IMG/VR virus record: IMGVR_UViG_3300021197_001384
Strand: one strand, 5' to 3'
DNA: 64,000 nt
Source of the DNA: an uncultured virus (IMG/VR IMGVR_UViG_3300021197_001384)
Taxonomy: Duplodnaviria > Heunggongvirae > Uroviricota > Caudoviricetes
Below, in pieces: positions 1 through 23,661 of the stretch (the stretch's first letter is position 1; the number at the start of each line of letters is the position of its first letter). Both the position numbers and the translations under genes were made by a program. Under the pieces are notes generated by a model. That model saw nothing but the letters and a program-made list of their open reading frames with translations, had not been told where the DNA came from and made no database searches.

Positions 1-189
1 AACCGGCTTGGTTTTACACTGCCGAAGCCGCGTTGCGATTTGCGAATCAATGCGGATGGACAACGGGCGAGGATCAGCAGCCGTTGACCATCGACGATAT
101 CGAGACCACCGACGACCCTGACCCTGATGACATCATGGATGAGCCGCTCGAGCTCAATGATCCGGCGAACCCATAAAGAAAGAAAAAAA

Positions 190-438
190 ATGCATATCGA
201 ATACACAGAAGACAGTGCCGCCTTCGACGACTCCCAAAGCGGAACACAGTTTTTATCCAACCTATCCTCATATGCGTTCAACACGGAAACGCTGCCCAGC
301 CATGAGGAGGCGAAGAAGATTCTGGCCTCAGAGAAGATCGATACCTCGAAACTGAAGATTTGGGCGAATGATCAACTGCGAAGCGCGAGAGCCAGGCAGA
401 AGCTAGCAGGGCGACGGAAAGGGACATGGAGCAATTAG
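190..438 (+). CDS. hypothetical phage protein
   Basis: ORF with A-rich leader before ATG 190. Confidence 0.5.
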   Translation: MHIEYTEDSAAFDDSQSGTQFLSNLSSYAFNTETLPSHEEAKKILASEKIDTSKLKIWANDQLRSARARQKLAGRRKGTWSN

Positions 439-465
439 GGACATAAACGGGAACCCCATAGGACA

Positions 466-675
466 ATGGAGCACATACCAATGAAGAAAAGACACAAACA
501 AATTCAAGCCCTTCACGACTCACACGCATTAGAGGCGCAAGCCGCTGCGCAGGAGCTACAAGCAAGGGCTGAGGAAGACCGCAAGTCCGTAATGAATGAA
601 GTATTCCAAGCCCAGCGTGAGGCAATGAGAGAAACAAGCAATGAAACCGCCCTTAGAGGGCAATGGGAGGACTGA
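466..675 (+). CDS. hypothetical coiled-coil protein
   Basis: ORF with E/Q/A-rich helical composition. Confidence 0.55.
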   Translation: MEHIPMKKRHKQIQALHDSHALEAQAAAQELQARAEEDRKSVMNEVFQAQREAMRETSNETALRGQWED

Positions 676-1023
676 TGAAACCGCCACTACCACGCCCCAA
701 GCCCCCAGACACCCGCATTTTAGAGCAAAACATAAGAAAGCCGTGGCAAGACACCCCCAAGCGGGAGAAATGCCCTAGAAATGGCCTTAAATGGTCCTCT
801 CTCTATATGAAAATAGACGGGAAGGAGCTAGGCATCAATGCCAAAGGGTGACTACGTTGCCTTCCTTAACGCTGCCCTTTATGGCCCTTCCCTCGCTCCC
901 GTAGGCGTATCCTCCAGTAACAGGGGAACGCTTGGGGGCAGGGCTAGGCTTAGGCTGGGGCTTTTTAGGGGCGGCCTTAGCGGGCCGCTCTAAATCACCG
1001 AATAAATCAACAGACATAAAACA

Positions 1024-1212
1024 ATGTATACAGACACAGAAACAGAAGCTCAAGAGCAAAACACGCCCGTATATCCGACGGCGGAGGCTAGGCAATGCCT
1101 CTACCTCAGCGGAAGGCTATTTGAGGCCAGACAGGAAATCAAAGCTCTAGAGGCTGACCTTGCCCTAATGGGTGAGGGCTTCCGATGGTTAAAAGAGAGG
1201 ATGGAGAAGTGA
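1024..1212 (+). CDS. hypothetical protein
   Basis: ORF whose stop overlaps the next start (GTGA). Confidence 0.55.
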   Translation: MYTDTETEAQEQNTPVYPTAEARQCLYLSGRLFEARQEIKALEADLALMGEGFRWLKERMEK

Positions 1213-1574
1213 ACTACGCAACATCAACCGACATGGTTTATTCATGCATGAGATACTTGGAGAGCAAGCTAGACGAAGACATAGAATTGGGGCCGAAAGG
1301 GTATCTTGACACCCTTGATGCCGCAAACTGCCTAGAAATGCCCTTGCCCGATGCCTACCGGCCCAACAGGGGACGATGGTTGGGAGAGCATCTTGAAGCA
1401 TTAGTGGAAATGAGAGACTCTGGGCGTTCGTTCGCGGAAATTGCCGCAACACTCAATCGTGAAGAGAACTCATGTAAGTGCAAATATTGGGCACTAAAGA
1501 AAAAGGAGGGGAACATAGCCTTCGGAAGGGTGAAGAAATATGCAGAAAGCCTCTTGACGAGCGAAAGTGTGTGA
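1209..1574 (+). CDS. putative HTH/Myb-like DNA-binding protein
   Basis: C-terminal W..EHLEALVEMRDSGRSFAEIAATLNREENSCKCKY resembles a Myb/GcrA-type HTH. Confidence 0.55.
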   Translation: MNYATSTDMVYSCMRYLESKLDEDIELGPKGYLDTLDAANCLEMPLPDAYRPNRGRWLGEHLEALVEMRDSGRSFAEIAATLNREENSCKCKYWALKKKEGNIAFGRVKKYAESLLTSESV

Positions 1575-1580
1575 TATAAT
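1554..1580 (+). promoter_or_regulatory. sigma70-type promoter with extended -10
   Basis: TTGACG at 1554-1559 and TGaTATAAT at 1572-1580; the 15-bp spacer is short. Confidence 0.55.
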
Positions 1581-1635
1581 GATGTCAACAGTAGCTTAAT
1601 TACTGCACGATTTCACTTTCCCCTCTCATAGGGAT

Positions 1636-1679
1636 AGGCGGTCACTCGGAAATTAAGCTTCCGGTGGCCGTCTTTTTTT
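1636..1679 (+). terminator. intrinsic terminator
   Basis: GGCGGTCAC-TCGGAA/TTCCG-GTGGCCGTC hairpin followed by T7. Confidence 0.7.
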
Positions 1680-2073
1680 GGCCATCCGCACAGCCCGCAC
1701 AGCGTTAACGGGTAGTAGGGCTTCGATAGACAGGCGAAGACAAGGTTACTAGGAGCGGTGCAACCCCGTGCCTGGTGTAAATGGCGCAGGTGTGGGAACC
1801 TGCGGGTCAGTGATTGTTGACGACGGCCAAACTTGGACTTACCAGCCCGAGACGATCACAAACGCACAACCAGCAACTCATCCGCAAATGAGCTGGAAGC
1901 GACTCTCTCTCCTACTTTGGGGTAGGGGGGAGGTCTGCCCGCTTTCCAACAATCTAAACCGAAATGAGCATGAGCGACCAACGGGAGCGGCGAACAAGGA
2001 GTGTTTTCTTCTTGGGCGTTTACGCCCCCTAGTGAAACAAATAAATTAACTAAAAGAATAGACTTATTGAGAC

Positions 2074-2142
2074 AAGTTTATCACTTAAACATAGCAAAGT
2101 TTATCACTTAAACATAGCAAAGTTTATCACTTAAACATAGCA
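2074..2142. repeat. 3 x 23-bp perfect tandem repeat, iteron-like; candidate origin
   Basis: AAGTTTATCACTTAAACATAGCA at 2074, 2097 and 2120 in AT-rich intergenic DNA. Confidence 0.85.
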
Positions 2143-2161
2143 AAATAGGTAATAAACCCCA

Positions 2162-2190
2162 TAGACAGGCTTCAAAGATTAGTGCATGAT
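2162..2190 (+). promoter_or_regulatory. possible promoter for the nuclease/cassette operon
   Basis: TAGACA-17 bp-CATGAT upstream of ATG 2214. Confidence 0.35.
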
Positions 2191-2213
2191 GTAGCCAACA
2201 ACCACAAAAACAT

Positions 2214-2981
2214 ATGAGCCAACATTTCTACGATATTCACGGCAAACCATGCCACACGCAGACGATTAAGAGCGGCCCCAACAAGGGGGAGCCACGCAAC
2301 ACCACCAAGGGCGACGCCAAGCGCAAGAAGCTATTTCCTTCTGTCTCAGCCTATACGGGCATGATGGCTAAAGAATGGCTAATCCCTTGGAGCATTAAGG
2401 GCGTGCTGGGCATTGCCTACGACCAACCCGCTATTGCCGGAGAGGATCAGGACGAATGGCGCAAGTCCATCACCCAGAAATGGGACAAGGTTAAAATGGA
2501 GCCTGCCGAGCGAGGGACAGCCCTTCATGCGGCCATTGAGGAGTATTACACGGCGGAATCCTGGACTGTCTCCGAGGATGATTACCATTTCTGTATGCCC
2601 GTCATTCATAAGCTGGAGGACTTAGGGGTGGAAGTGAAGCACACCGAGAAAGTGGTGGTGAATGCGGCGATGGGATACGCTGGCACCGCCGACATCATTG
2701 AGAAGACGGGGCAGATAGATGACTTCAAGAGCAAGGATTTCAAGGGGAAGGACACGGTGATTCCCTCGTTCGATCATTGTATGCAGCTTGCGGCCTATTT
2801 TGTTGCGGCGAATGGACACAACAACTTCCTTCCTTGCCGTAACATCTATTTCTGCCGTAACGAGCCGGACAAGGTGATGGTGAAGGAATGGACACCGGAC
2901 GAGTTGACAACGGGATGGGAAGCGTTTCAGGCTTGCCTCACGCTTTACCGCCTCACAACAGGATTTGACGCAAGACAATGA
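2214..2981 (+). CDS. PD-(D/E)XK superfamily exonuclease
   Basis: RGTALHAAIEEY, GYAGTADII..IDDFKS and QLAAY motifs. Confidence 0.8.
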   Translation: MSQHFYDIHGKPCHTQTIKSGPNKGEPRNTTKGDAKRKKLFPSVSAYTGMMAKEWLIPWSIKGVLGIAYDQPAIAGEDQDEWRKSITQKWDKVKMEPAERGTALHAAIEEYYTAESWTVSEDDYHFCMPVIHKLEDLGVEVKHTEKVVVNAAMGYAGTADIIEKTGQIDDFKSKDFKGKDTVIPSFDHCMQLAAYFVAANGHNNFLPCRNIYFCRNEPDKVMVKEWTPDELTTGWEAFQACLTLYRLTTGFDARQ

Positions 2982-3193
2982 AAGACATAGGAACCAACAT
3001 ACAATTCGGCCAGCACGTTCGCATCCTAGACGGAGACGTTGAGGGCACCGTCATTGGCATCAATCTGGACGACAACGGGGAAGTGGTGATTACGGTGGAT
3101 TGCGAGTCTGAAGGCATTTACGAACCCATGCATGAGCATGAGGTGAAATCTAAGTCGAACACTAGTGCTGATTCGCGCCGTCTTCGGCGTTGA
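2978..3193 (+). CDS. hypothetical protein ending inside attC-like site 1
   Basis: ATGA overlap with the nuclease stop. Confidence 0.6.
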   Translation: MKDIGTNIQFGQHVRILDGDVEGTVIGINLDDNGEVVITVDCESEGIYEPMHEHEVKSKSNTSADSRRLRR

Positions 3194-3212
3194 ATCTAGC
3201 ACATGGTTCTAA
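3154..3212 (-). repeat. attC-like site 1 (59 bp)
   Basis: + strand GTCGAAC-6-GCTGATT-hairpin-AATC(T)AGC-5-GTTCTAA; canonical R''-5-L''(8, bulged 4th base)..L'(7)-6-R' on the - strand. Confidence 0.75.
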
Positions 3213-3244
3213 ATCAACGAAGCTAAAAATAACACTATAAACTA

Positions 3245-3454
3245 ATGGATACGATAAACATACACGAAACAAATCAGACACTAGGCGAATTGATCGCCCT
3301 AGCACACCGAAAGCATGGGGGGAACTGCGACTATGATGATATAGTAGTGGAGACTACTCGGGACTGCGGATTTAAAGAATGGTGGAACCTTCACGGGTCA
3401 GGCATAGTGCCACTGAAGACTCACGACATGGAGGAGACACGCAGAAATGGATGA
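3245..3454 (+). CDS. cassette-like orphan ORF
   Basis: Lies between attC-like sites 1 and 2; stop inside site 2. Confidence 0.6.
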   Translation: MDTINIHETNQTLGELIALAHRKHGGNCDYDDIVVETTRDCGFKEWWNLHGSGIVPLKTHDMEETRRNG

Positions 3455-3505
3455 ATCGAAAAACACGACGGTGCAACCTGCGTTGTCTCGCTCGTCTAGT
3501 TATAC
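3418..3505 (-). repeat. attC-like site 2
   Basis: GACTCAC-6-GAGGAGA-cacgcag..ctgcg(t)tg-TCTC(G)CTC-5-GTTATAC; left core has CAC instead of AAC. Confidence 0.7.
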
Positions 3506-3719
3506 ATTAATGTCGTATTCCGTGAGCCCTGACGGGCTCAAGAATCACATCAAGTCTCCGATACTATGGGGAAACTTCATCAAGGACGACCGCTCAGCGG
3601 TGTGCCTGCCGCTCGCATATCTCCGAAAGCCAAAATGGATGAGTGACGAGGACTGGGGCAAGGTGGTTTCTGGGGTAAATCTACACATGCCCCATGAGGC
3701 TAAGTCCTTCACTGTATAA
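3447..3719 (+). CDS. cassette-like orphan ORF
   Basis: Starts inside site 2; body flanked by complementary GTTATAC and GTATAAC. Confidence 0.65.
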   Translation: MDESKNTTVQPALSRSSSYTLMSYSVSPDGLKNHIKSPILWGNFIKDDRSAVCLPLAYLRKPKWMSDEDWGKVVSGVNLHMPHEAKSFTV

Positions 3720-3773
3720 CTGCTCCGATCAGACGCGGGGCGAAGCCCCGTTGTCTGGGGCTGATGGTTAGCA
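3714..3773 (-). repeat. attC-like site 3 (60 bp)
   Basis: GTATAAC-6-GATCAGA-cgcggggcgaagccccgttg-TCTGGGGC-5-GTTAGCA. Confidence 0.7.
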
Positions 3774-3835
3774 ATTTATCACAATGAGACAATCCTACTG
3801 CATATTCCTAAGCCTACAACGCGGGCAACGATGGC

Positions 3836-3855
3836 GACTTAGCGACTGGTTAGAA
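3836..3855 (-). repeat. attC-like half site (right half only)
   Basis: GACTTAGC-gactg-GTTAGAA; core is complementary to TTCTAAC at 4124. Confidence 0.5.
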
Positions 3856-3869
3856 CCTTTTAAAATACC

Positions 3870-4142
3870 ATGAACGAAAATCAAAAATACTGCATCGAAA
3901 TGTTAGAAGAGTGGGTGTTCGGAGCCCACCATCTCCCGAAGGTGAAAGAATGGGGTCGCGGCGTTTGCGTGAACTATCGCGGTGACCTTTCGACCTTCGA
4001 CGGTGACCGGCTAACGAGGCTTGTGATCCTCGCGCACCGTCGGAAACCACCGAGGGAAGGGCTGCGAATGCACGAATACCACCCGACGCTTTCCGACCTA
4101 ACGAAGTCAATCGAAGCGCAAATTTCTAACACCAAGGACTAG
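3870..4142 (+). CDS. cassette-like orphan ORF
   Basis: Flanked by GTTAGAA and TTCTAAC; stop inside site 4. Confidence 0.65.
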   Translation: MNENQKYCIEMLEEWVFGAHHLPKVKEWGRGVCVNYRGDLSTFDGDRLTRLVILAHRRKPPREGLRMHEYHPTLSDLTKSIEAQISNTKD

Positions 4143-4197
4143 CATGAATGAAGTGAAGAATGAACGTAATGAATTGTCTAGCTCCGACTTGTTATCT
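4124..4197 (-). repeat. attC-like site 4
   Basis: TTCTAAC-5-GGACTAG..CTAG(C)TCC-5-GTTATCT; left spacer one base short. Confidence 0.65.
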
Positions 4198-4500
4198 CTG
4201 ATACAGTCGGAACCTGACGCAGACGCACACATCCACTACGACCAAGGAGAATGGTGGGTTACAAGCGAATGGCTTTGCGGTGGATTTGCTGGCAGGGCTT
4301 TTACGGGGAAGACCCAAGAGGAAGCCGCCGACAAGTTAATCGAATATCTGAATGCACACATTGGGCATGATAGCTGGGTAGGGCAAGACGTAACGAAAAG
4401 CGGCTGGCCTAACCTCAAGGCGGTCAAAAGCTACCTAGTGTCTATGCGCGAAGAGGATTCCATTGAAGATAACACCCCTAGTGAGCAATCCCGACCCTAG
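4144..4500 (+). CDS. cassette-like orphan ORF
   Basis: Starts in site 4, stops in site 5; body flanked by GTTATCT and AGATAAC. Confidence 0.7.
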   Translation: MNEVKNERNELSSSDLLSLIQSEPDADAHIHYDQGEWWVTSEWLCGGFAGRAFTGKTQEEAADKLIEYLNAHIGHDSWVGQDVTKSGWPNLKAVKSYLVSMREEDSIEDNTPSEQSRP

Positions 4501-4598
4501 AATATTATGAGCAGTAGCAACGAAACGAATACAGCAACGCCACCCGCCAGCCCCTCGAATGGTGCACGGTCGGGATTGGCTCCAATAGATGGTTCGGT
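4467..4598 (-). repeat. attC-like site 5 (132 bp)
   Basis: AGATAAC-6-AGTGAGC-aatcccgacc..ggtcgggatt(g)-GCTC(C)AAT-5-GTTCGGT. Confidence 0.75.
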
Positions 4599-4764
4599 AA
4601 TTCCAGTCACCAAGGTGGAGGCCATTCTCAAGCGGGTATGGAATCACACAATAACTGTTGCGGGTGCAAATGACTACCTAATCTACGAGTGCGATGAGAT
4701 TATCTGCCTCGAACCCGAGAAAACAAAACCGAACAAGGCAGTTAGCCAATCCGGCCGAAAATAA
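4507..4764 (+). CDS. cassette-like orphan ORF
   Basis: Starts in site 5; body flanked by GTTCGGT and ACCGAAC. Confidence 0.6.
   Translation: MSSSNETNTATPPASPSNGARSGLAPIDGSVIPVTKVEAILKRVWNHTITVAGANDYLIYECDEIICLEPEKTKPNKAVSQSGRK
4728..4757 (-). repeat. terminal half site (truncated attC or attI-like)
   Basis: ACCGAAC-6-GTTAGCC-aatccggccg with no matching right half. Confidence 0.5.
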
Positions 4765-5044
4765 AAGACGCTAATATGGAAGCCCCCTTCTTTTCCTAAT
4801 GCAACTATCACTGGCTGACAATGACGAAAAAGCGTCTGAGAAATGCCAGCGGAGGGCAACGGGGGCCAACGGTGCCCCTTACCAGATGAGAGGCACCCCA
4901 TTAGGAACTCTTTAATATGGATCTTAAGTGTTGCCTAAAGGGGCGGGATGGCCTCCGCTGAATAAGGCTAGTAGCACAGGGGGGCGACATCCCCCTAGGG
5001 GCAGTGAAAGACTGTCGGGGTCCACCAATTCAACATAAATAGAC

Positions 5045-5287
5045 ATGATACAAGAAACAAAAGAATCCATTCCCTCCCAATTAGACCTCCTTAAAGGCTC
5101 TATTGTATTCGTAGATGGTGCGCTCCTCGGCTTAGAGAAGAGCATGGACGTGCTAGAAGGAGACACGCTGGCATTCAGCTCGCGCCTTCAGCAGCTAGAC
5201 GCCATTCATCAAGTGCTGCATGACCTTCGTGAGGACATGGCAGCACAGGCACGCCTTAGCGAAGAAGCATCTGTAACGGAGAAATGA
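5045..5287 (+). CDS. hypothetical protein
   Basis: ORF coupled to the helicase by ATGA overlap. Confidence 0.6.
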   Translation: MIQETKESIPSQLDLLKGSIVFVDGALLGLEKSMDVLEGDTLAFSSRLQQLDAIHQVLHDLREDMAAQARLSEEASVTEK

Positions 5288-6636
5288 TTGAGCCCCCCCA
5301 TTCAGAGGAAGCAGAGCGTTTCCTCCTCTCTATGATATTCACCCGCGATGAATACCTTGCTGAATCCATTGACCTCGGGCTTCGCCCCAAGCACTTCTAC
5401 ACCAAAGAGAACGCTGCCCTGTTCGATGCCGCCGTTGAGGCATTCGCTACAAGCGGGGGCATTGTCCTAGAGGAATTTATTTCCGACATCACGAAGAACG
5501 GGAAGCTGGAGGCGGTCGGCGGCATGGCCAATTACGTTGACATCACCAAGGAGCTGTTCTCCTCGCGATCCGTTAAGTATTGGGCGGGAGAGATTAAGAA
5601 CAGATTCTACCGCCGCAGGGCATTGGAAATGTGTCAGAACGCTTCCGTTGCGGCAGCAGACTTAGGGACGGACATTCACACCGTCCTAGCCAGCATCAGC
5701 AATCGCTCCCTAGACATCATTAATGAGCAGGAGAAGCCGGTGACGCTGGCTAATGCGGCGGATGATGCCCTTTCCCTCATTGAGCGCATTGAGTCGGGAG
5801 ACATTATTCAGGGCGAGCTAGGAGTGCCCACTCCCATTGAGTCCATCAACAAGTTCCTTGGAGCCCCCAGACCAGGCGAGCTGATTACGATTGCTGCCCG
5901 TCCTGGTGGGGGTAAAAGTTCGCTTATGCGTGGGCTGGTGCGGCACATCAGCGAACATTTTGGCCGCACTCTCTTATTCTCACGGGAAATGCCAATGAAT
6001 GAGCTTGTGACGATATTCGCGCAAGAAGCCTCAGCCGTGTCGTGGCGTGAAATACGAGACGGAACGTGCCTGCATGAACAAGTGGCAAAATTCAAGAAAG
6101 GGCTGGCTCGTGTTAAGGGACTAGGGCCGCGCCTAATGATTAACGACAGGGACAGGACGGTGGACCAGCTAATTGCCCGTATTGCCGCCGCATCACGCTC
6201 TGAGAACCCCCTGAAGGCCGTAGCCGTTGACTACCTCCAACGCTATGACCCACAGCAAGAGCGAGGAGAGACAAGGGACATGGCTATTGGACGCTTCACA
6301 ATGTCCCTCAAGGATGCGGCGATGCAGCACAATGTCCCTGTGTTCCTTGGGGCGCAGATTGGACGAGGATCAGAAAGAGAGACACGCGCCCCACGTTTGT
6401 CCGACCTACGGGAGAGCGGCAATATTGAGCAAGACTCGGATCGCGTTTGGTTCATGCACATTCCAGAGCAGACGCCAGAAGGTGCGCCACAGGATGCTAA
6501 CGACCAAGGGCTCCCCGTCATTTACGTTCAACTCCTACAGGCCAAGGGGCGTGGGGATGGACTGGGCAAGATCGACTTGGCGTTCCACCGCCGCATTACA
6601 ACGTTTACTGAGTGGAGGGATTTTACCAAGCAGTAA
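5284..6636 (+). CDS. dnaB: replicative DnaB-like helicase
   Basis: PPHSEEAE N-terminus, Walker A ARPGGGKS, VAVDYLQ, AQIGR, LSDLRESGNIEQDSD. Confidence 0.95.
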   Translation: MIEPPHSEEAERFLLSMIFTRDEYLAESIDLGLRPKHFYTKENAALFDAAVEAFATSGGIVLEEFISDITKNGKLEAVGGMANYVDITKELFSSRSVKYWAGEIKNRFYRRRALEMCQNASVAAADLGTDIHTVLASISNRSLDIINEQEKPVTLANAADDALSLIERIESGDIIQGELGVPTPIESINKFLGAPRPGELITIAARPGGGKSSLMRGLVRHISEHFGRTLLFSREMPMNELVTIFAQEASAVSWREIRDGTCLHEQVAKFKKGLARVKGLGPRLMINDRDRTVDQLIARIAAASRSENPLKAVAVDYLQRYDPQQERGETRDMAIGRFTMSLKDAAMQHNVPVFLGAQIGRGSERETRAPRLSDLRESGNIEQDSDRVWFMHIPEQTPEGAPQDANDQGLPVIYVQLLQAKGRGDGLGKIDLAFHRRITTFTEWRDFTKQ

Positions 6637-6646
6637 GAAAGGGGAT

Positions 6647-6889
6647 ATGAATACAAAACGAATGAAGGACGATGACGGGGAGTGGGTGAAGGACGGCGAC
6701 ATGATTGTGTTTGCCTACGGGATTCCGCCCGTCTATGTTTACGCCCCCGTAGTCGCTCGGGGAGGCTCGCTTTTCGCACTCACCCCCGACCACACCCCAA
6801 GGGAATGCAACCTCCGGTCACTCAGAACCTATGTTGGTTCTTGGTATAAATCCACCAAACACTTGACAACCATCACCAACCCCCTATAA
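6647..6889 (+). CDS. hypothetical protein
   Basis: ATG after AAGGGG just downstream of dnaB. Confidence 0.55.
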   Translation: MNTKRMKDDDGEWVKDGDMIVFAYGIPPVYVYAPVVARGGSLFALTPDHTPRECNLRSLRTYVGSWYKSTKHLTTITNPL

Positions 6890-6890
6890 A
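6863..6890 (+). promoter_or_regulatory. possible sigma70 promoter
   Basis: TTGACA-16 bp-TATAAA. Confidence 0.4.
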
Positions 6891-6913
6891 CCATCATCAA
6901 CAACACACAACTA

Positions 6914-7168
6914 ATGACACACCAACAAGCATTACGGGAGGACACCTGCACGTTCCCCTCTTATTCCATTTCCCTGAATAAGCGTTGTGCGGCACACATT
7001 GACAAGCTGGAGGCAGACGTAAACGACCTCGCGGAGGTTGTGGCGGTATTGCAGGCTGAAAACCAGCAGTCACATGACATTATTCAATCTCTTCTAAGGC
7101 TGATTCCGAATAACGCTGAAGCCTTGGAAATCATCAAAGACACATTCCACTCAACCGAAGGAAATTAA
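6914..7168 (+). CDS. hypothetical coiled-coil protein
   Basis: ORF in tightly packed operon. Confidence 0.55.
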   Translation: MTHQQALREDTCTFPSYSISLNKRCAAHIDKLEADVNDLAEVVAVLQAENQQSHDIIQSLLRLIPNNAEALEIIKDTFHSTEGN

Positions 7169-7169
7169 T

Positions 7170-7901
7170 ATGAGCCGCACACTGCAAGAAGACGACCGCC
7201 CCATAAATCCCTGTAAGAAGTTCCTACGCTGGGCTTCTGGTGACAAATGCTGGCGTTACTGGGACAAGGAATCCGAGAAGATGGAGCTTGTTCCACACAA
7301 GACCCCTTTCATTGTCCTGGATCAGCTTTCCACCTGCTCTGGCTTTAATGACCGTAAGAACTGCGGCGTCTGGTCTAACGAGGTTCGCAACCTTAAGCTC
7401 CCCATGCGAGTGCAGGACAAGGACGGCGAGGTGTTCTCTGGCCCTTGGCGCGAAGTGAAGGAGAAGGTGCATTACGCCAAGTTCTGTGCCTCTGTTTACG
7501 CCGTTGCCAAGCTGGGAGACGACTACGAGATTGTGAACTTCCAATTGTCCGGTGCCGCATTGAGCGGCTGGATTGACTTTGTTAAGGAACTTGGAGGCTC
7601 CAAGGCCGTCTATGGTGACGTTGTTGTTAGCGTCCCGTCCGTTGGCGAAGGCAAGAAAGGATCGGTGAACTACTCATTCCCAGAATTTAAGGTGGTGAGT
7701 AACACCCTCTCGGACGATGCCAAGGCTAAGGCAGACGAGGCCGACAGCACCCTCCAGTCCTACCTCACAGCCTATTTCGCCGCATCCCCCGAAGGGAAGG
7801 CCGCAAAGGTGCATAGTGAGAACGTGCAAGCTTACGAAGCCCCCGCCCCTTCTGCGGAGCCCACGCTCCCAGACGAAGAAGACGACGAAATGCCCTTTTA
7901 A
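7170..7901 (+). CDS. putative ssDNA-binding protein
   Basis: Beta-rich core and SSB-type acidic tail EEDDEMPF. Confidence 0.6.
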   Translation: MSRTLQEDDRPINPCKKFLRWASGDKCWRYWDKESEKMELVPHKTPFIVLDQLSTCSGFNDRKNCGVWSNEVRNLKLPMRVQDKDGEVFSGPWREVKEKVHYAKFCASVYAVAKLGDDYEIVNFQLSGAALSGWIDFVKELGGSKAVYGDVVVSVPSVGEGKKGSVNYSFPEFKVVSNTLSDDAKAKADEADSTLQSYLTAYFAASPEGKAAKVHSENVQAYEAPAPSAEPTLPDEEDDEMPF

Positions 7902-7969
7902 TTTTCGGTTAGTGTGTTCGTTCATAACAGCCCTTGCTCCGTGGGGTTAATCACGGAGCACCAATTTTA

Positions 7970-8344
7970 ATGGCAAGAGTAGCCAGAACACGCAACGGAG
8001 GCAAATGGACGGAAAGCCAATACTGGTCAGCCATTCGTTCCGCCCTCCGTTCTAAGTTCCGCTACTGGACCCCCGCCACACAAGCCCTGAAAGCCGCCGA
8101 ACGACCCTCTAAATCCAAGAACAAACGTCTCAAATATGAATATCAATGCGCTAAATGCAAGAAGTGGTTCAAGCGTGCCGATGTGCAAATTGACCACATC
8201 ATCCCATGCGGGAGCTTGAAATGCGCAGACGACATTCCAGCTTTCTTAGAGAGACTAACCCCAGAGGATTCGGCGGCTTTTCAGGTGCTCTGCTCCAAGG
8301 ACCACAAGATTAAAACCCAAGCAGAAAGAAAGAAGCGTAAATGA
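7970..8344 (+). CDS. HNH endonuclease
   Basis: CAKC..VQIDHIIPCG..FQVLCSKDHKIKT. Confidence 0.85.
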   Translation: MARVARTRNGGKWTESQYWSAIRSALRSKFRYWTPATQALKAAERPSKSKNKRLKYEYQCAKCKKWFKRADVQIDHIIPCGSLKCADDIPAFLERLTPEDSAAFQVLCSKDHKIKTQAERKKRK

Positions 8345-8607
8345 AACGCTCCCCCCTTCGCCGCATCAGCAAGAAGCAACAGGAACGACTACGCACCTAC
8401 TACCCCCTCCGCAAGCAATACCTCAAAGACCAGCCCACCTGCGACCTGTGCGACAACGCCGCCACCGACATTCATCACACTAAGAAACCAAGAGCCACCT
8501 ACCTAAACGCCGTAGAGACATGGATGGGACTGTGCCGCATTTGCCATTCGCGAATAGAGAACGACAAGGCATGGGCCAGAGAGAACGGCTACCTGGAAAA
8601 CATATAA
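8341..8607 (+). CDS. HNH-like zinc-binding nuclease
   Basis: CDLC..ATDIHH..LCRICH. Confidence 0.75.
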   Translation: MKRSPLRRISKKQQERLRTYYPLRKQYLKDQPTCDLCDNAATDIHHTKKPRATYLNAVETWMGLCRICHSRIENDKAWARENGYLENI

Positions 8608-8608
8608 C

Positions 8609-8803
8609 ATGACACAAGAAAGCATCGCACAACTAAAGAATGTTCAGGAATATCTGATTGAGGATATGTATTCCTGCTACTGCGACGTCATCAACGGCGA
8701 GCCACAGGCGGAAGTGGACCTGTTCCAATCCCTGCAACGCCTCAAGACATTTGCAGACGCCGTGCAAGGACTGGAGGCCGTAGATGGATTGCAATACACC
8801 TGA
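8609..8803 (+). CDS. hypothetical protein
   Basis: ORF in tightly packed operon. Confidence 0.5.
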   Translation: MTQESIAQLKNVQEYLIEDMYSCYCDVINGEPQAEVDLFQSLQRLKTFADAVQGLEAVDGLQYT

Positions 8804-9065
8804 GCCTCCCCCGCCTAAGTGCTACCAACGACAGGGCGGCAATGGATACGAATACATTTGCGAGTCCTATGGTAGCTCCAGAGACTCAGACGAGGAATAC
8901 ATCATTGACCTACACCCCGATCATTTCGGATGCTCCTGTAAGCACGACTATTACAAATTGCGGGAAAAATACACGAATGGGGTTGACACTTCCAACATCT
9001 GCAAGCATACAGCCTTGGCAATGCAGCAGTTCTACGTAGACCACATCATTAACAGAAATAAATAG
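8784..9065 (+). CDS. SWIM zinc-finger protein
   Basis: CSC..CKH motif; same family as 56974-57246. Confidence 0.7.
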   Translation: MDCNTPEPPPPKCYQRQGGNGYEYICESYGSSRDSDEEYIIDLHPDHFGCSCKHDYYKLREKYTNGVDTSNICKHTALAMQQFYVDHIINRNK

Positions 9066-9066
9066 A

Positions 9067-9801
9067 ATGACAATGACAGACGAACAAATTGCGGGGAAAA
9101 TGCCCGCTGGGTATTACCGAGTGGATGATGGCAAATACCGGAAAGGCGATCTGATGATGGGCGTTTCGTTTCCAAAGGACATTTTTGAGCCTTGTGAACT
9201 ATTTGGCCTTGTTGGCAGTTACATTCATTTCTGTGACGTAGTAGCTCGTCCCATGAAGGGCTACAAGCCAGAACCCACCACCGTCAAGGAATGGCTAGAA
9301 ACACTCCCTGACGGCTATCGCGAACGTGCGATCAGTCAGGGTGATAAAAATTGGCTGAATGATGGGTGCGGGGATCTTTGGAACGCCATTCATCATTTCA
9401 AAGAATGGGACATCACAGATGAGGGTATCGATTTCTGGAAGCAGATGTCTGAATGGTCTATCGATTGCGATGGCCTGCCCCCGCTACCGGAACAAGAACC
9501 GCTGAACCCCGCAAGCGACACGTCGCCCCCCCTGTTCCCCACGGGCGCAGAAGCCCGCAAGGAATACCCCGTAGGCACGTTCATTCGTGACTATTTCCCC
9601 CACGCTATTGCGGCCCTAGCCCACCACAGCTACAAGGCGCAGCAACAGCATGGACCAGCCACCAATGAAGCCCCTATGGAATGGCTGAAGGAGAAGAGTG
9701 TGGGCGATGGCAATCAAATGACGCGCCATTTCATGGAGGGCGACAACGTAGCTACGGCTTGGCGAGCATTAGAAATCCTTGAACGGGAGCTGACGAAATG
9801 A
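9067..9801 (+). CDS. protein with C-terminal dATP/dGTP diphosphohydrolase-like (DUF5664-like) domain
   Basis: RKEYPV..DYFPHAIAALAHHS..QQH..W..EKS..RH..AWRAL pattern recalled from this family. Confidence 0.5.
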   Translation: MTMTDEQIAGKMPAGYYRVDDGKYRKGDLMMGVSFPKDIFEPCELFGLVGSYIHFCDVVARPMKGYKPEPTTVKEWLETLPDGYRERAISQGDKNWLNDGCGDLWNAIHHFKEWDITDEGIDFWKQMSEWSIDCDGLPPLPEQEPLNPASDTSPPLFPTGAEARKEYPVGTFIRDYFPHAIAALAHHSYKAQQQHGPATNEAPMEWLKEKSVGDGNQMTRHFMEGDNVATAWRALEILERELTK

Positions 9802-9983
9802 AAATCACTATTGAATCAACCAAGCGGCACACGGCTTTCAGTAGAACCGCCTCTGTTTCTACTGACCACGACGACGTATTAGCAGAGGATCTAGTTTTGC
9901 TTCTCCGACAAGTTTGCCTTGGTTATGGGTATGAACCCTTCACCGTAAACGGAATGTTCTTTGATGAAACCGACAACGAGTAA
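9798..9983 (+). CDS. hypothetical protein
   Basis: ATGA-coupled ORF. Confidence 0.5.
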   Translation: MKITIESTKRHTAFSRTASVSTDHDDVLAEDLVLLLRQVCLGYGYEPFTVNGMFFDETDNE

Positions 9984-10122
9984 TACATTCTCCGTAGCAA
10001 CGGCCATCCTCCTACTTCTGTCCCTCGTTCTCATAATGGTGCAGCGTTCCGAAGAGGGGCTATTTCTGCTTGGGGGTGGCATTCTGTGTGCTGCGTTTGC
10101 GGCCATCACCCAACACCAATGA
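9964..10122 (+). CDS. small two-TM membrane protein (52 aa, not in ORF track)
   Basis: MKPTTSNTFSVATAILLLLSLVLIMV..GLFLLGGGILCAAFAAI; fills the gap, ATGA-coupled to next ORF. Confidence 0.5.
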   Translation: MKPTTSNTFSVATAILLLLSLVLIMVQRSEEGLFLLGGGILCAAFAAITQHQ

Positions 10123-10325
10123 CACATAACGTTCCACGAACATACGAAGCCCTTGAGCAACTGGCTAAGACCAAGAGCACGCAAGGCATGAGGATTCGTA
10201 TGTTTGAAGAAGGGGAATACTGGCACTGGCAATGGTGCATAAACGGCATTCCTGGCATTATTGATTCTGGCAGCGTAAATGCGCCCAAGCCTATAGCCTT
10301 TGCTATGGCTGTGCGCTTCATCTAA
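10119..10325 (+). CDS. hypothetical protein
   Basis: ATGA-coupled ORF. Confidence 0.5.
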   Translation: MTHNVPRTYEALEQLAKTKSTQGMRIRMFEEGEYWHWQWCINGIPGIIDSGSVNAPKPIAFAMAVRFI

Positions 10326-10337
10326 ACAACAAGCAAT

Positions 10338-11114
10338 ATGAACAGATTATTCGCAGACATTGAAACCAGCCCCAACATTGGATTGTTCTGGAGGTCGGGA
10401 TACAAGCAGAACATCTCCTACGACAACATCATCCAAGAGCGAGGCATCATTTGCATTGGCTACAAATGGGAGAACGCCAAGCGTCCCGAATGTCTTACAT
10501 GGGACGAGAACCAAGACGACCGTGAGATGCTGGAAAAGTTCACTAACATCTTGGCTGAAGCCGACGAGGTGGTGTTCCACAACGGGGACCGCTTTGATCT
10601 TCCTTGGATTAGGTCTCGCGCCCTCATGCACGAGATTCCTGCATGGCCTGAGCCCAAGAGCCTTGACACCCTTCAGTGGGCTCGCCGTCGCTTCTATTTC
10701 AACTCCAACCGCCTCGACTATCTGGGAGAAATCCTAACGGGGACAGGCAAGCTGAAAACGGAATACGGAATGTGGAAAGACATCCTCCTTAAGCAGTGCC
10801 CAAGTGCTATGGCAAAGATGGTGCGGTATTGCAAGCGCGACGTTGTGAAGCTCCAAGAAGTTTATGAACGCCTCGCCGCATACTCTCCCGCAAAAACCCA
10901 CGCTTCCGTCCTCAACGGTGGAGAAAAGTGGATGAGCCCACACGTTGCCGGATCAACGGACGTTTACCACAACAAGGCTTATGTCACGGCGGCTGGCACG
11001 CCCAAGCACTATATGCGCTGCAACGTCTCCAACCGCAGCTACACCATCTCTGACACCGCATACAAGCACTACTGCGAGTGGCGGCGGGACAACCCCAGAA
11101 AGGATGGGAGATGA
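10338..11114 (+). CDS. DEDD/RNase H-like 3'-5' exonuclease
   Basis: FADIETSP (ExoI), HNGDRFDLP (ExoII), YCKRDV (ExoIII). Confidence 0.85.
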   Translation: MNRLFADIETSPNIGLFWRSGYKQNISYDNIIQERGIICIGYKWENAKRPECLTWDENQDDREMLEKFTNILAEADEVVFHNGDRFDLPWIRSRALMHEIPAWPEPKSLDTLQWARRRFYFNSNRLDYLGEILTGTGKLKTEYGMWKDILLKQCPSAMAKMVRYCKRDVVKLQEVYERLAAYSPAKTHASVLNGGEKWMSPHVAGSTDVYHNKAYVTAAGTPKHYMRCNVSNRSYTISDTAYKHYCEWRRDNPRKDGR

Positions 11115-11656
11115 GAGATAAGAACTACAAATCATACGAAGAAGTGGAGAAAGAATCTATATACGTTGGTCCTCTACAACCCCACGCAGACGGATGGGTG
11201 AACTGGAGCGACACCATGAAAACCTTCAAGTGTAACGACACAGTTTTCCATGGGGCCATAATTAACGGTGGCGAGGAGGACGTGCTGGATGTGGGCACAC
11301 ACACCAATAACTGCGTCTTCCAGGACTTTGACGTGTTTGGGGATACTTCCCGCTACATCATCACCCTCAAGAGCCACAGCGAAGGGAACGTGTTTGAACG
11401 CTGGCGTGTCCATGAGCACGCTATGCGCTGCGATATTCAGCAGGGCAATTGGAGTGATTCAGACAACGGCACCAACCGCCGCAATCTCTACCGCGAATGG
11501 GTGAGTGAGGAAGGAAAGCCCTTCACCTATTCCTATCGCTTCTTCAGTGGCAGCAAGCCCAAGTTCGAGGACATGGAGGTGAAGCACCTCTGGTGGCTCT
11601 CTGCGGCCATTACAGCCTACTTCTGGGGCAAGTGGGTGTGGGTTAAGGTGTTTTAG
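11111..11656 (+). CDS. short beta-helix-like protein with hydrophobic C-terminus
   Basis: Periodic NCVF/GNVF motifs, GGEEDVLDV, Trp-rich tail. Confidence 0.45.
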   Translation: MRDKNYKSYEEVEKESIYVGPLQPHADGWVNWSDTMKTFKCNDTVFHGAIINGGEEDVLDVGTHTNNCVFQDFDVFGDTSRYIITLKSHSEGNVFERWRVHEHAMRCDIQQGNWSDSDNGTNRRNLYREWVSEEGKPFTYSYRFFSGSKPKFEDMEVKHLWWLSAAITAYFWGKWVWVKVF

Positions 11657-11681
11657 TATAACAAGACGCACACCCTTGTTG

Positions 11682-14600
11682 CTACTGCGCTACTAAATAT
11701 GCCTTCACCTGCTCGTAAACAAGCGGCGTTAGCAGCCTCTTGCCCTTCAGCTCGTTAATGTAAGCCTGCTGCTCTTGCTCGGTGCCAAGCTTAGCAAGAT
11801 GCTGGCTAATATACTTAGCTCGCGTTCCGTCATTGGCGTCAAGAGCACCAATAAGCCGGTCGATTTCATTAACGCCAAGCGCAAGGTCACGCATCTGAGA
11901 CTTAACTCTATTCGCAACGCTACTTGCAATTTTTGGTTGCTCACGGGCAATCTTTGAAATGGCAGACCCACGCCGGAATGCTGGCAGATTCATAACCTCG
12001 TCAGCGAGCAATTCTGCCGACCTGTCTTTTTCAACAGGTGGCAACAGGTAGGTATCCGTAATTGCACCAAGGATCGTCTGCGAGTCTATGCGTCCGTCTT
12101 TTAGCGTAAGCGCAATCTCTTCGTCGGTGAGGCCAAGCGTCCTAGAGTCATTAACGATTTTCTTTACCTTGTCAAAAACGTTCCTGTGTAGCTGAACGTA
12201 TTGCTGATATGCTTCCTGTTTTCCTGCATCGTCGAGCGCGCGCCTTCTGTCGGACGCATAAGAAATTCTGTCATCCGACATTGTTTTGCTTAAACCAAAG
12301 GCATCAGTCTTAAGCCTAGAATAGGGGTCAAAGGTCTTTTTTCTGATTCCAGCAAAGTTTTCAGCAATCAGATCGTTCATTGTGTAAACCTGACCTCCCG
12401 AAGTTTCGACCTTAAAGTCTTTTGACTTAAGCGTCTTGAAGAACTTATTAGTTTCCCTAACAACAAGTGGGTTCAGGGTGTTATCCAAAAAGTAACTAGA
12501 CTTGTCTATAAACTGTTTGTAAATTGGCGCGTTTTCGCTGGTGATTGGAGTGCCATACCTAGTCTTTCCTGACACCACCTCGGACACAGGGGCCAACAAG
12601 AGATTAGCACCAAACAATTGCTTGCCTAATGACACAGACAAAGCAGAAAATGCTTCTTCTGGCGTTGCTTGACGGGCCGCAAGGGATGCGGCTTCAATAA
12701 CGGTGGCATGGGGAAAAGTGTAGTTGAGATTGATATACGAGTAAGTCCCGTCGTCATTCTTGCTAATATCAACAAGGCTATCTCGGTCCCAGCTAGGCAT
12801 ACGATTTCTTACTGCTTGTTGTTCCTCGTCACTCATCCCAAAATTAGAGCCAACGTATCCCACACCGCCTAAAATGGTAGACATAGAAGCAATGCGGCTA
12901 GCCCCCCGCTTTCTAAGAACGGCATTGCCACTAGCCATTTCCTGAAGACCTAATTTGTAAGTATTAAACACAACACGGAATCGGTCGGCTGTGTAAGAAA
13001 CAAACGGATCAAGAAATCCAACGGATGAAAAGTTTCTTATAAATTTTGGCAGCGAATCGTAATCCTGGGTGGTAAGCCTTACTTTTTCGGCGGCTCTTTT
13101 CATCAAGCTTTCCATTTTTTCATTAGGAAACGCCTTCTTAAGTGCAGCTAGTTCGCCATAAAAATTAAATACTTTAGCGGCTGTTTCTGGGGCGGAGTAA
13201 AGCTTGCCTACCGTTTCAATGCTACCCTTGAGTTTTTGTTTTGCTTTAGTGGGTAGCTTATTAAGCAAGCTTTTGTCGGACTCAAGTAGACCCCGCTTAA
13301 AGTCGTTAAACTGCACGTTTCCACGAACCAATCCCTCACGTTTAAAAAACTTAAACAAGTCAAGCGTTTCTTTTGTTCTTAACGTTCCATCTGGTTTTCC
13401 AATTCCCAGGTTAAGAAAGAAATTATTGCGAGCCGTAGTGTAGTTCTTTCCTCGCAACAGCTCCAGTCCGTGCCCTTGTCCAATTGTGTCCATTGCACCA
13501 CCCCACACGTTGGACGCCCAACCTTTTAATGAACCAAGGGTTTTAGGCAATTTTGCAGCAGAAGAAACTGAAGCAATAAGCCCAAAGTTCTTCAAAATTG
13601 GATCAAGGTCTGTTGTGGTGTAAGCATTAAATGCTTCACGAATTTCCGGCGTGGTGTATAAACCAGCAAGCGGATTAAGCAGTTTGTCTTCAGACTGAAC
13701 AACTAAAACATCACCAAGTTCTGAATTGTTTCTAAATAAACGATTAGCAATTCCAATATCACGAACCTCTTGCATAACCTTAAACTTGGCCTCGGATGCA
13801 GTCATTTTTCCAAGGGTTTCAGAAGCAAGGTAAACAGGGTCGTGAATTTCGCCAAGTAGTTGCCTTGTAAGCAAATCTATATCTTTCTTCCGTCGGTAAA
13901 CACCGCTCCTTGCGTTAAGCCTACCGGTTGTCGCAAACTGCATTGCGCCCTCGCGATCAACTAATTGATTAGCAATGTCAGTATATTCTTGCCGAAACTT
14001 ATTAGCACGACTTAACACATCCTTCCTTACTTCAGTAAGAGGCTTAATTAAGCTCCAGGATTCGTTTGGCTTTATCTTGCGCTCTTTGTCTTTAATGCCC
14101 ATATTTTGTAGCACTTGGACGCGATGCATGCGTGCTCTAATTGCTCTTTGGGTAAGCTTCTCAATACGATCTGCTACATTGCCTTCAACCCATCGCTCCA
14201 TTGTTGGAGTATCTGGACGCCACCCGTTAAATACTTTATACGAGCGATTAAGGTATGACCCAAGATTATCAACCATAGCATTTTCAAGGGCATCTTTGCC
14301 GTCAACAAGGCCAAGTTGAATGCTTCTTTCCGTTGCATCGTCAATTACTTTTCTAACAAGTCTTGCCGAGGGTGCTACCAACTCTGGAACATTTGCCAAA
14401 TTTGTCTGGCCGCGAAGATACTGAACAGTCAAGTCTGCTGCCTCTTCACGCTGAGCCTTATCTTTAATTGATCGCAATGCCTTGTCCATGTCCCTTAAGG
14501 CAAACTCGCCATCAACAGCAAGCTGGCTTTTCTCGCCTTCAATCTTTCTAAGCGTCGGAACGAGTGTCTTAATCGCGCCATATTCTTTAATGCCCGAAAT

Positions 14601-23277: not shown

Positions 23278-23661
23278 TTAGTTATTTTCCAATGCCTCAA
23301 GACGGGCAGTGAGTTCCTGCACCGCACCGACGAGCAGCGGAACCAGTTTAGATTGATCAATGCCTTGGTATTCTGGAACCGACCTAGTGCCCATGACGGC
23401 AGGAGTGACTTCGTTTCCATCGTCATCTAGGACGGCTGGAGTGACCTCGTATTCCTCGTCACGCATTGCGTCCTTCTCGCCGGAGATGGCTTCTGGAACG
23501 ACCTCTTCCACCTCATGAGCGATGAATCCATCTACCACAACCGAGTCATCCGCGATGAAGTTGAAGCGGCTGGGTTTGAGGTTTCCAATGCGTTGCAGCG
23601 AATCCGACATTGGCACCACGTTCTCCTTCAAACGATAGTCCGAAGAGGTGTTGTATGCCGT
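23278..23661. repeat. shared fibre block 1, diverged copy of 59544-59927
   Basis: Colinear at offset 36266 with scattered, mostly synonymous changes. Confidence 0.9.

Follow-up and report, generated by a model that had tools for sequence, protein, structure and literature searches.

Integrons are usually seen as a bacterial device, and homologous or illegitimate recombination is the usual explanation for the turnover of accessory genes in phages. PeSLs (promoter-stem-loop motifs) are promoter/terminator motifs that probably act via homologous recombination, and they are not known to have AAC/GTT boxes, an extrahelical-base geometry or a link to integrases. Like the locus reported here, the PeSLs described in T4-type phages are repeated structured motifs around small accessory genes, found in plastic regions with modular shuffling (PMC2839356, PMC4122927). 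Clusters of attC sites in phages have already been published: phage genomes without intI, that of TJE1 included, were described in 2023 as containing attC arrays between small accessory genes (PMC9892861), and the same report by Qi et al. takes two attC sites as the minimum for a CALIN. The canonical geometry of attC sites is presented in Nivina et al. 2016 (PMC5027507) and Cury et al. 2016 (PMC4889954).

Here, we describe an island within a 64,000-nt stretch of an uncultured Caudoviricetes virus (the window, i.e. the whole stretch of DNA analysed). We regard this island as quite likely an integron-type gene cassette array without its own integrase (CALIN), carried by a podovirus-like phage in its replication module. 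As in chromosomal integrons, its sites combine AAC/GTT triplets, R and L boxes and an unpaired spacer with extrahelical bases 6 bp apart (positions 16/17 and 23/24) on the arm opposite AAC; the cassette ends are complementary, lengths range from 57 to 132 nt and sites are similar in sequence within an array family. The differences from the chromosomal type are an extrahelical base at position 16 that is usually T instead of G, a 3'-arm spacer of 4-5 nt, a phage devoid of attI, Pc and intI, and ORFs on the bottom strand. With the TJE1-type CALINs, the locus has in common attC sites between small accessory genes, the absence of intI and, in related arrays, DNA methyltransferase cargo. However, the bottom strand of TJE1 is opposite to the genes, whereas in the window, as in each of the 9 phage-like contigs examined, the bottom strand is the coding one. 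The window sites also differ from those of TJE1 in holding gene starts together with the last codons of the previous gene, and cassette turnover from phage to phage is seen directly at this locus, which is known from sequence alone. What distinguishes this locus from the published clusters is a coding strand that is also the bottom strand, along with gene starts lying inside the sites.

A block of small genes missing from close relatives

The island is a 2.2-kb block of small genes (Table 1) within the phage replication module, bordered upstream by a conserved small ORF and downstream by a DnaB helicase gene. Two viral contigs (L001 and L002), which are ~91% identical to the window on both flanks, lack the whole island and, in both of them, an ATGA overlap joins the end of the small ORF to the helicase start. 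A search of viral contigs with the helicase retrieved the same two close relatives and one cut contig, and viral-contig searches with the ORFs 3870-4142 and 3447-3719 gave no relatives. No match was obtained by blastn of the window against catalogued phages or by an Rfam scan of the whole window, and the 118-aa cassette protein yielded nothing above the reporting bar in Protein Atlas. For the last part of the island, which ends near CTGTAAC, no attC-type partner was found.

Table 1. Features of the accessory island and its upstream border (window coordinates)
Feature	Positions	Strand	Remarks
Accessory island (likely cassette array)	3142-5307	+	missing from L001 and L002
Conserved small ORF	2978-3193	+	final codons supplied by the left arm of site 1; L001/L002 homology to 3141, tail differs
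Site 1, attC-type hairpin, 59 nt (GTCGAAC ... GTTCTAA)	3154-3212	+	fold, geometry, model R3
Cassette ORF, 69 aa, without family	3245-3454	+	
Site 2, degenerate attC-type site (GACTCAC ... GTTATAC)	3418-3505	+	model R3, geometry
Cassette ORF, 90 aa	3447-3719	+	between GTTATAC 3499 and GTATAAC 3714
Site 3, short form, attC-type hairpin, 60 nt (GTATAAC ... GTTAGCA)	3714-3773	+	fold, model R3
GTTAGAA box	3849-3855	+	exact complement of TTCTAAC 4124; further copy at 3902
Cassette ORF, 90 aa, phrog_22261 (unknown function)	3870-4142	+	
Site 4 (TTCTAAC ... GTTATCT)	4124-4197	+	encloses one ORF's stop and the following ORF's start
Cassette ORF, 118 aa	4144-4500	+	family seen in many contexts
Site 5 (AGATAAC ... 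GTTCGGT)	4467-4598	+	inner inverted repeat 14/15 nt
Cassette ORF, 85 aa	4507-4764	+	4471-4734 has other context on both sides in run X1 contigs
ACCGAAC box	4728-4734	+	complement of GTTCGGT 4592; right end of the 85-aa ORF cassette; loose ends behind 4734
Rest of the island (280 non-coding nt, 80-aa ORF)	4765-5287	+	ends near CTGTAAC 5271-5277

The preliminary description had noted that no integrase was in view. This holds for the 79 ORFs of the window, which stops short of the last 6.25 kb of the contig: none of them is a tyrosine recombinase (PF00589). Likewise, searches of seven related viral contigs, one with terminal repeats and one rated 96% complete, gave no integrase in any of them. 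The intI gene that stands beside the array in a complete integron is absent from the window ORFs and from these seven contigs. A CALIN consists of at least two clustered attC sites without a neighbouring intI; here, three model-supported sites are clustered within 620 nt, and sites 4 and 5 add to them on breakpoint support.

Geometry, folding and core boxes of the sites

Five full or near-full sites with attC geometry had been listed in the preliminary description, the first one with a length of 59 bp. They were scored with a geometric rule derived from the layout given in PMC5027507. An initial version of this rule, which asked for three extra base pairs beyond the second extrahelical base, recovered none of the real Vibrio sites and was relaxed after inspecting real sites. 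The relaxed rule gives 17 matches on the bottom strand of a real Vibrio array and 3 elsewhere in that record, and exactly the 3 published sites without any other match in phage TJE1 (49 kb); two mismatches or fewer are found in 6.1% of 3128 AAC..GTT pairs. Site 1 is indeed a 59-nt strong hairpin without any mismatch to the rule, displaying an extrahelical T at positions 16 and 23. Sites 2, 4 and 5 also remain within two mismatches (1, 1 and 2, respectively), that of site 2 being a G at position 16, yet the 5' triplet of site 2 is CAC and not AAC. For site 3, the long form (3714-3855) is a poor match to the attC geometry, with four mismatches. The structured part of this site corresponds to the short form, with two mismatches (G at position 16, T at 23) and a 3' box, GTTAGCA, that is only 6/7 complementary to TTCTAAC. 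Altogether, the sites match the expected L box and extrahelical bases (around positions 16 and 23/24, separated by a 6-bp stem) with 0-2 mismatches, and AAC/GTT triplets delimit sites of 59, 60, 74 and 132 nt, within the 57-141 nt range of attC sites, site 2 (88 nt) being the one with CAC. The plus strand fits the rule better than the minus strand in 15 of 15 sites. A genome-wide pattern scan returned 10 matches versus ~6 expected by chance, and model-confirmed sites are present at 4 loci only.

In folding analyses, site 1 stands out as a strong hairpin (z -4.4 and -5.3), followed by the stretch 3710-3777 (z -2.6 and -2.9). For sites 2, 4 and 5 and for site 3 in its long form, folding stays at background (z -1.4 to +1.8), as it does for four bona fide Vibrio attC sites (z +0.32 to -1.37). 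Site 1 and the short site 3 are members of a 57-61-nt hairpin family with the canonical attC layout, i.e. R box, unpaired spacer, L box and two extrahelical bases 6 bp apart on the GTT arm. R3, a covariance model derived from this family only, scores these two sites, which are among its seeds, at 57.6 and 52.1 bits, respectively; a single-sequence model (R1) was too specific. Site 2, which is not a seed, was recovered over its full length at its exact coordinates, 3418-3505, with 20.4 bits and an E-value of 0.0013 (model E-values being rough by the tool's own statement), and further long sites were also recovered at predicted coordinates. Three of the five sites are thus above background in the covariance-model check that had been proposed, two as seeds and one independently; site 4 is not significant (E 2.4) and the R3 search of the window gives no match at site 5. 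These last two sites are weak as structures, and they are supported by breakpoints and core pairing.

In the 49 kb of TJE1, the three best matches of the same model are the published attC sites (E 2.6e-5, 1.4e-4 and 0.47) and, in this respect, it also recognises validated attC sites, although Vibrio-type sites are missed by both R2 and R3; record MH445380 (1-50000) contained no integron. Every R3 match with an E-value below 0.01 in the window, L009, L010, L012 and L021 is on the coding strand (14/14). The structure alignment, which is model-fitted and as such favours the structure, has 93.4% of its cells paired, and both partners vary in 12 of 18 pairs, a result matched by 0 of 500 shuffles; slid controls reach 27-45%. 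Compensatory changes of the kind expected for an attC structure are present.

Structured elements at gene junctions could alternatively act at the RNA level in the early operon, as terminators, translational couplers or RNase III-type processing sites, with an incidental complementarity of the cores. The sites are located on the transcribed strand where one gene meets the next, with stop and start codons inside them, and Qi et al. (PMC9892861) mention the view that attC sites include weak terminators. However, the 10 terminator-like sites detected in 1-12000 include none within 3100-5300, and the hairpins have no Rfam match. As such signals would leave unexplained the complementary cassette ends 140-280 nt apart, the breakpoints at AAC and the occurrence of the site family beside intI with genes on the other strand, we consider this explanation highly improbable.

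All eight core 7-mers of the preliminary description are in place, and its four exact complementary pairs across inter-site segments, corresponding to the cassette-end complementarity of integron gene cassettes, stood up to examination. Between 3100 and 4800, five exact pairs of GTTNNNN and its reverse complement lie 50-500 nt apart, i.e. the four already listed and one with the second GTTAGAA at 3902. Dinucleotide shuffles contain 0.44 pairs on average, reach five pairs in 1 of 2000 cases and a chain of four in none (0/2000). AT-rich junction words (TAAC, GTTA) combined with selection by the reader might produce such pairs by chance: these words are common to 3/4 of the window cores, 148 real windows of 1.7 kb (both strands) contain 0.99 pairs on average and up to 6. 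The whole window contains 51 pairs. The real-sequence background, about twice that of shuffles, counts against the cassette reading, as does the lack of an exact core partner for the first and last cassettes. Nevertheless, the chain of four is unique to the island among the 148 real windows, and independent arrays with different cores form their own chains (four in L010 and three in L009, each in 0/2000 shuffles). An exact upstream partner within 1.5 kb is found for 7 of 8 high-confidence sites versus 162 of 1444 AAC boxes in general (11.2%). The family of the 118-aa ORF even displays a compensatory core change, from GTTATCT/AGATAAC in the window to GTTAGCC/GGCTAAC in L009 and L010. Together with covariation, breakpoints and the cross-detection of published attC sites, these independent arrays make a chance origin hardly credible.

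Breakpoints and cassette exchange between phages

Comparing relatives at the core boxes, as the preliminary description had proposed, gave 25 homology ends that could be placed. Fourteen of them fall inside a 5' AAC box or no more than 4 nt away from one, and a 3' GTT box is hit less often (2); one end is within the last 7-mer, and the other 8 are at neither kind of box. With 16 of 25 ends located at boxes, homology breaks at the cores as in integron gene cassettes. Single modules are common to the window, unrelated phage contigs and contigs of other sequencing runs. At site 1, a contig from another run breaks at 3157, and a contig of run X2 carries 3157-3436 with one difference. Inside site 2, a foreign contig breaks at 3436, not at the box. 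Foreign contigs break at 4128, 4134 and 4194 in site 4 and at 5144 and 5273 in the last part of the island, and homology to run X1 begins at 4471 in site 5. The unrelated phage L006 shares one module only, for which homology begins at 4127 and stops at 4473, and this module is flanked by a perfect 24-bp direct repeat. In L010, L024, L026 and L027, one and the same site interior (96-99% identical) is preceded by four different cassettes and, in each case, the 5' box complements the GTT box of its own upstream cassette. The cargo of related arrays includes DNA methyltransferases (L006, L009, L012) and a Lar-type restriction-alleviation protein. The suggestion that the phage gains or shuffles cassettes is borne out by the island missing in L001/L002, an order that is B-C in L010 but C-x-B in L021, and the single module shared with L006. 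No excision or circle joints were found in the sequencing-run contigs, which covered only 0.05-0.10 of the stretch, the uncovered parts being uninformative.

This mosaicism might also arise if attC-derived sites were now portable homology patches, shuffled by phage homologous or microhomology recombination or by hairpin template switching rather than by an integron integrase. Contigs that are otherwise unrelated have site interiors with 96-100% identity, which is enough for phage recombinases, and a PD-(D/E)XK exonuclease gene (2214-2981) is located directly upstream. In addition, breakpoints are found at both boxes and, for 8 of 25, elsewhere, the L006 module lies between repeat copies, and the phage contigs searched contain no integrase. 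We consider this scenario unlikely, though, since new junctions fuse unrelated sequence exactly at AAC with only 3-7 nt in common and, at 4127, the site interior belongs to its gene alone. Moreover, extrahelical-base geometry, strand polarity (15/15 sites) and covariation are maintained, which is needless for mere homology.

Strand polarity, integrase source and biological meaning

Contrary to canonical cassettes, in which the ORF is on the attC top strand with attC downstream, attC stands here at the 5' end of each gene, an orientation that counts against the cassette reading. The AAC that serves as crossover box is carried by the coding strand, which makes this strand the attC bottom strand, opposite to the textbook arrangement, and we infer that it is also the strand that folds. 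In the integron-type array that we favour, each junction has an attC-type site whose coding strand begins with 5'-NNNNAAC, followed by a short unpaired spacer, the L-box stem and a variable loop that often encloses the stop of the previous gene and the start of the next one. The return arm, with two extrahelical bases 6 bp apart, comes next, and then a spacer and GTTNNNN-3'. Folded as single-stranded DNA, the site would be the substrate of an integron integrase, which would cleave A|C of the 5' AAC and exchange strands with a second site. Cleavage and strand exchange at AAC would result in cassettes excised as circles, inserted and reordered.

The enzyme would be a host-encoded IntI acting during infection, and an Opitutia-like host is probably its source. 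The site family is found beside integron integrase genes in Verrucomicrobial genomes: in one of them, 0.8 kb separates members of the hairpin family from a broken integron integrase, and the genes are on the other strand. Another site-carrying bacterial genome, from Opitutia, encodes an intact IntI scoring 379 bits. More tentatively, phages of Verrucomicrobia-like hosts might keep their own pool of mirror-image cassettes, with the gene on the attC bottom strand and the RBS, start and first codons inside the attC loop, which the host IntI would swap between unrelated phages. Under such a scheme, an RBS and start inside the loop would entail expression from phage early transcripts and silence in a bacterial integron, and gene bodies and attC interiors would assort independently because both conserved triplets are used.

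To conclude, the sequence record shows that uncultured phages, although unrelated, exchange small early genes one at a time at attC sites. It points to a host enzyme used for quick exchange of early accessory genes, some of them related to restriction-modification. As the coding strand is here the bottom strand, the island also offers a natural set of sites suited to testing strand choice. Finally, these sites tie a phage group to hosts with integrons of the same attC type.

Phage setting and the chain of core boxes

The window belongs to a metagenome contig of 70,251 bp, of which it forms the first 64 kb, and displays a phage-like gene content (see table), including a terminase-like protein. 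No tRNA gene and no match to an Rfam family were found across the window, and no nucleotide match to it was found among catalogued phages. The cassette array sits within a plus-strand replication module. The window is also heterogeneous: its G+C content is ∼0.50–0.53 up to 12 kb, 0.43–0.48 at 12–24 kb and 0.55–0.58 at 24–58 kb, then falls to 0.45. Together with a second capsid-type gene fragment and two tail-fibre genes, these blocks could mean that the genome is a mosaic or that two phages were joined during assembly.

Features of the window and their coordinates
Feature	Coordinates	Strand
PD-(D/E)XK exonuclease	2214-2981	+
Small ORF after exonuclease	2978-3193	+
Six more small ORFs and a 280-nt gap, between that ORF and the helicase gene		+
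Candidate attC-type site 1	3154-3212	
Candidate site 2	3418-3505	
Candidate site 3-short	3714-3773	
Candidate site 4	4124-4197	
Candidate site 5	4467-4598	
280-nt non-coding stretch with G+C-rich inverted repeats (e.g. 4847-4858 with 4949-4960)	4765-5044	
DnaB helicase	5284-6636	+
Peptidase_S74 tail-fibre gene	23278-26175	
Polyvalent virion protein, 2384 aa, ADP-ribosyltransferase domain (ART-PolyVal) and DUF7178	26188-33342	-
Capsid protein	38991-39896	
T7-type head-tail connector	41819-43525	
Peptidase_S74 tail-fibre gene	59544-61820	
Second capsid-type gene fragment (SU10_MCP)	63694-63999	

The eight core 7-mers of the preliminary description, ending in AAC (5′ box) or starting with GTT (3′ box), were all recovered at their positions. 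Between 3100 and 4800, five exact complementary GTTNNNN/NNNNAAC pairs spaced by 50–500 nt are present, compared with a mean of 0.44 in dinucleotide shuffles, of which 1/2000 contained five pairs and 0/2000 a chain of four consecutive pairs. A harsher control with 148 real windows of 1.7 kb gave a mean of 0.99 pairs and a maximum of six, the chain of four being unique to the array region. For the ACCGAAC box at 4728, a search for an attC-type partner gave none.

Geometry and conservation of the sites

In Nivina et al. (PMC5027507), the recombinogenic attC bottom strand is given as 5′-RYYYAA|C ... GTTRRRY-3′, with extrahelical bases on the arm opposite AAC at positions 16 and 23/24 separated by a 6-bp stem, spacers of 5–6 nt and a site length of 57–141 bp. 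A geometric rule was derived from this description and calibrated on known arrays. For a phage record carrying a complete Vibrio integron, 17 bottom-strand matches fell inside the array and 3 outside it; for the 49 kb of phage TJE1, the rule returned exactly the three published CALIN sites (attC cluster without integrase), with no other match. Site 1 deviates from the rule at no position, sites 2 and 4 at one, and sites 3-short and 5 at two, against frequencies of 0.22% (no mismatch), 1.25% (≤1) and 6.1% (≤2) among 3128 AAC..GTT pairs of the window. The strict rule also matches six long stretches inside large window ORFs (∼1 per 21 kb of strand). The plus strand fits better than the minus strand for 15/15 sites. 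Folding of the single-stranded DNA is strong for site 1 (z -4.4/-5.3) and moderate for 3710-3777 (z -2.6/-2.9). It stays at background for sites 2, 4 and 5, which is not counted against them since four real Vibrio attC sites show the same (z +0.32 to -1.37).

Covariance models were built from the short hairpin site family. Model R2, based on five well-aligning short sites, matched three phage-like contigs (L024, L026 and L027) and four bacterial loci. In a model-fitted alignment of 14 sites, 93.4% of cells pair and both sides change in 12 of 18 pairs; 0/500 shuffles reach this and slid controls give 27–45%. A further model (R3), built from the same 14 sites, retrieved long-loop sites at coordinates predicted by core pairs in the phage-like contigs L009 (2421-2524, 2797-2918) and L010 (2435-2524, 2190-2280) and at site 2 of the window. 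Of the sites initially noted in the window, this check supports site 2 (E 0.0013), but site 4 reaches only E 2.4 and the search missed site 5. In TJE1, R3 places the three published attC sites, which lie opposite to the gene strand, at the top of its matches. Vibrio-type attC sites are detected by neither model.

Gain, loss and reordering at the boxes

Two viral contigs (L001 and L002) ∼91% identical on both flanks lack window 3142-5307 entirely, which makes the island an indel of 2.17 kb; in both, the small ORF after the exonuclease overlaps the helicase start. Other indels relative to close relatives were seen after the helicase gene, where ∼243 nt (6606-6848) are replaced by ∼26 nt in L001, L002 and L005, and at 8310-8353, where L001 carries ∼1.1 kb extra between two HNH endonuclease genes.

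Contigs of three public runs, compared over 3100-5400, turn into unlike sequence at AAC boxes (3157, 4128, 4134, 4471 and 4734) and in a GTT box (4194), with further breaks at 3436, 4176, 5144 and 5273. Cassette 4471-4734 thus occurs in another context, and each of its two breaks falls at an AAC box. The expectation that relatives vary at the core boxes mostly holds: a 5′ AAC box contains, or is ≤4 nt from, 14 of the 25 homology ends, 2 are in a 3′ GTT box and 1 is inside the last 7-mer, but 8 fall elsewhere. By arithmetic, the boxes with a margin of 4 nt on either side amount to about 9% of the island. The tally is restricted to ends free of duplicate comparisons (L011, L009/L012, L026/L027), of contig ends and of another six L024/L026 blocks. 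Because breaks occur at both triplets, site interiors may assort separately from gene bodies (GTTNNNN ... NNNNAAC).

Window 4127-4473 is the only part shared (86.5% identity) with L006, a phage contig that is otherwise unrelated, the homology beginning at TAAC of TTCTAAC and stopping at AAC of AGATAAC between random flanks. A 24-bp perfect direct repeat (L006 2969-2992/3310-3333) lies on both sides of this module and spans the AAC box, the last 20 nt of the upstream gene being those of the module. The module encodes a 118-aa protein family found at 15 loci in a metagenome scan, whose close homologues diverge straight after the Asn encoded by AAC of AGATAAC. Distant homologues (L014-L020; 51–52% identity) occur on AT-rich contigs, some large (178–289 kb); these proteins are extended at the N-terminus and end naturally in SEEDSIS, and no AAC/GTT boxes were seen on reading their flanks.

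At positions homologous to window GTTATCT/AGATAAC, L009 and L010 carry GTTAGCC/GGCTAAC, i.e. two compensatory changes. They display their own chains of exact pairs (three and four, respectively), each found in 0/2000 shuffles, and such independent arrays exclude chance. The L009 array (250-2918) has five model-supported sites flanking an N6/N4 and a Dam methyltransferase, a PAPS-reductase-like protein and the 118-aa protein's homologue; DNA-modification genes abound in it. Two cassettes are ordered B-C in L010 versus C-x-B in L021.

In a pattern scan of viral contigs, the site interior of L010 2797-2854 recurs in L024, L026 and L027 at 96–99% identity with a different upstream gene in each of the four. 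Phage homologous recombination on such shared interiors could make part of the mosaic, but leaves unexplained the junctions between unrelated sequence at AAC and the maintained polar geometry. Each of the four contigs has, further upstream, a GTT box exactly complementary to its 5′ box (GGCT-, GCCG-, CGCT- or GCCC-AAC). A partner box ≤1.5 kb upstream was found for 7/8 high-confidence sites versus 162/1444 AAC boxes in general. Hairpins acting as RNA signals cannot account for breakpoints at the DNA level, and no terminator-like site was found in the island.

Orientation and the putative recombinase

The chain of cores, the geometry, the covariance model and the breakpoints at boxes uphold, by sequence, the reading as an integron-like array; the array of attC-type cassettes in this phage is real, its enzyme and recombination activity being putative. 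This kind of array is already published: Qi et al. 2023 (PMC9892861) describe 17 phage CALINs and report that 5/6 tested sites were active with IntI1, the tested TJE1 sites being recombined. What differs is the coding-strand arrangement. Unlike in textbook cassettes, genes are encoded by the bottom strand in 9/9 phage-like contigs (and for 14/14 R3 matches with E < 0.01), and the site therefore lies at the 5′ end of each gene; its loop contains the start codon and first codons, while its left arm encodes the short tail and stop of the preceding gene. Among the titles and abstracts listed in literature searches, Qi et al. is the one on attC sites in phages and none concerns coding-strand arrays; the supplements of Qi et al. 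may bear on orientation.

As initially described, no integrase is in view: a search for PF00589 gave nothing in the 79 window ORFs or in 7/7 related viral contigs, one with terminal repeats and one rated 96% complete. In two bacterial loci, the sites are opposite to the gene strand, as in the canonical arrangement. A predicted 134-aa ORF with no Pfam family (L030 3986-4390, minus strand), in a bacterial integron remnant, is encoded by the bottom strand and runs through an attC site like the phage arrays. In a Candidatus Synoicihabitans genome (3.5-Mb contig), ∼0.8 kb separate a family site (58 bits) from a broken integron integrase; the two share a strand, which is the canonical integron layout, and more rule-fitting sites adjoin. 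Two family sites occur in an Opitutia genome whose IntI is intact (379 bits, cut-off 265). It is therefore plausible, by inference, that the phage employs a host IntI.
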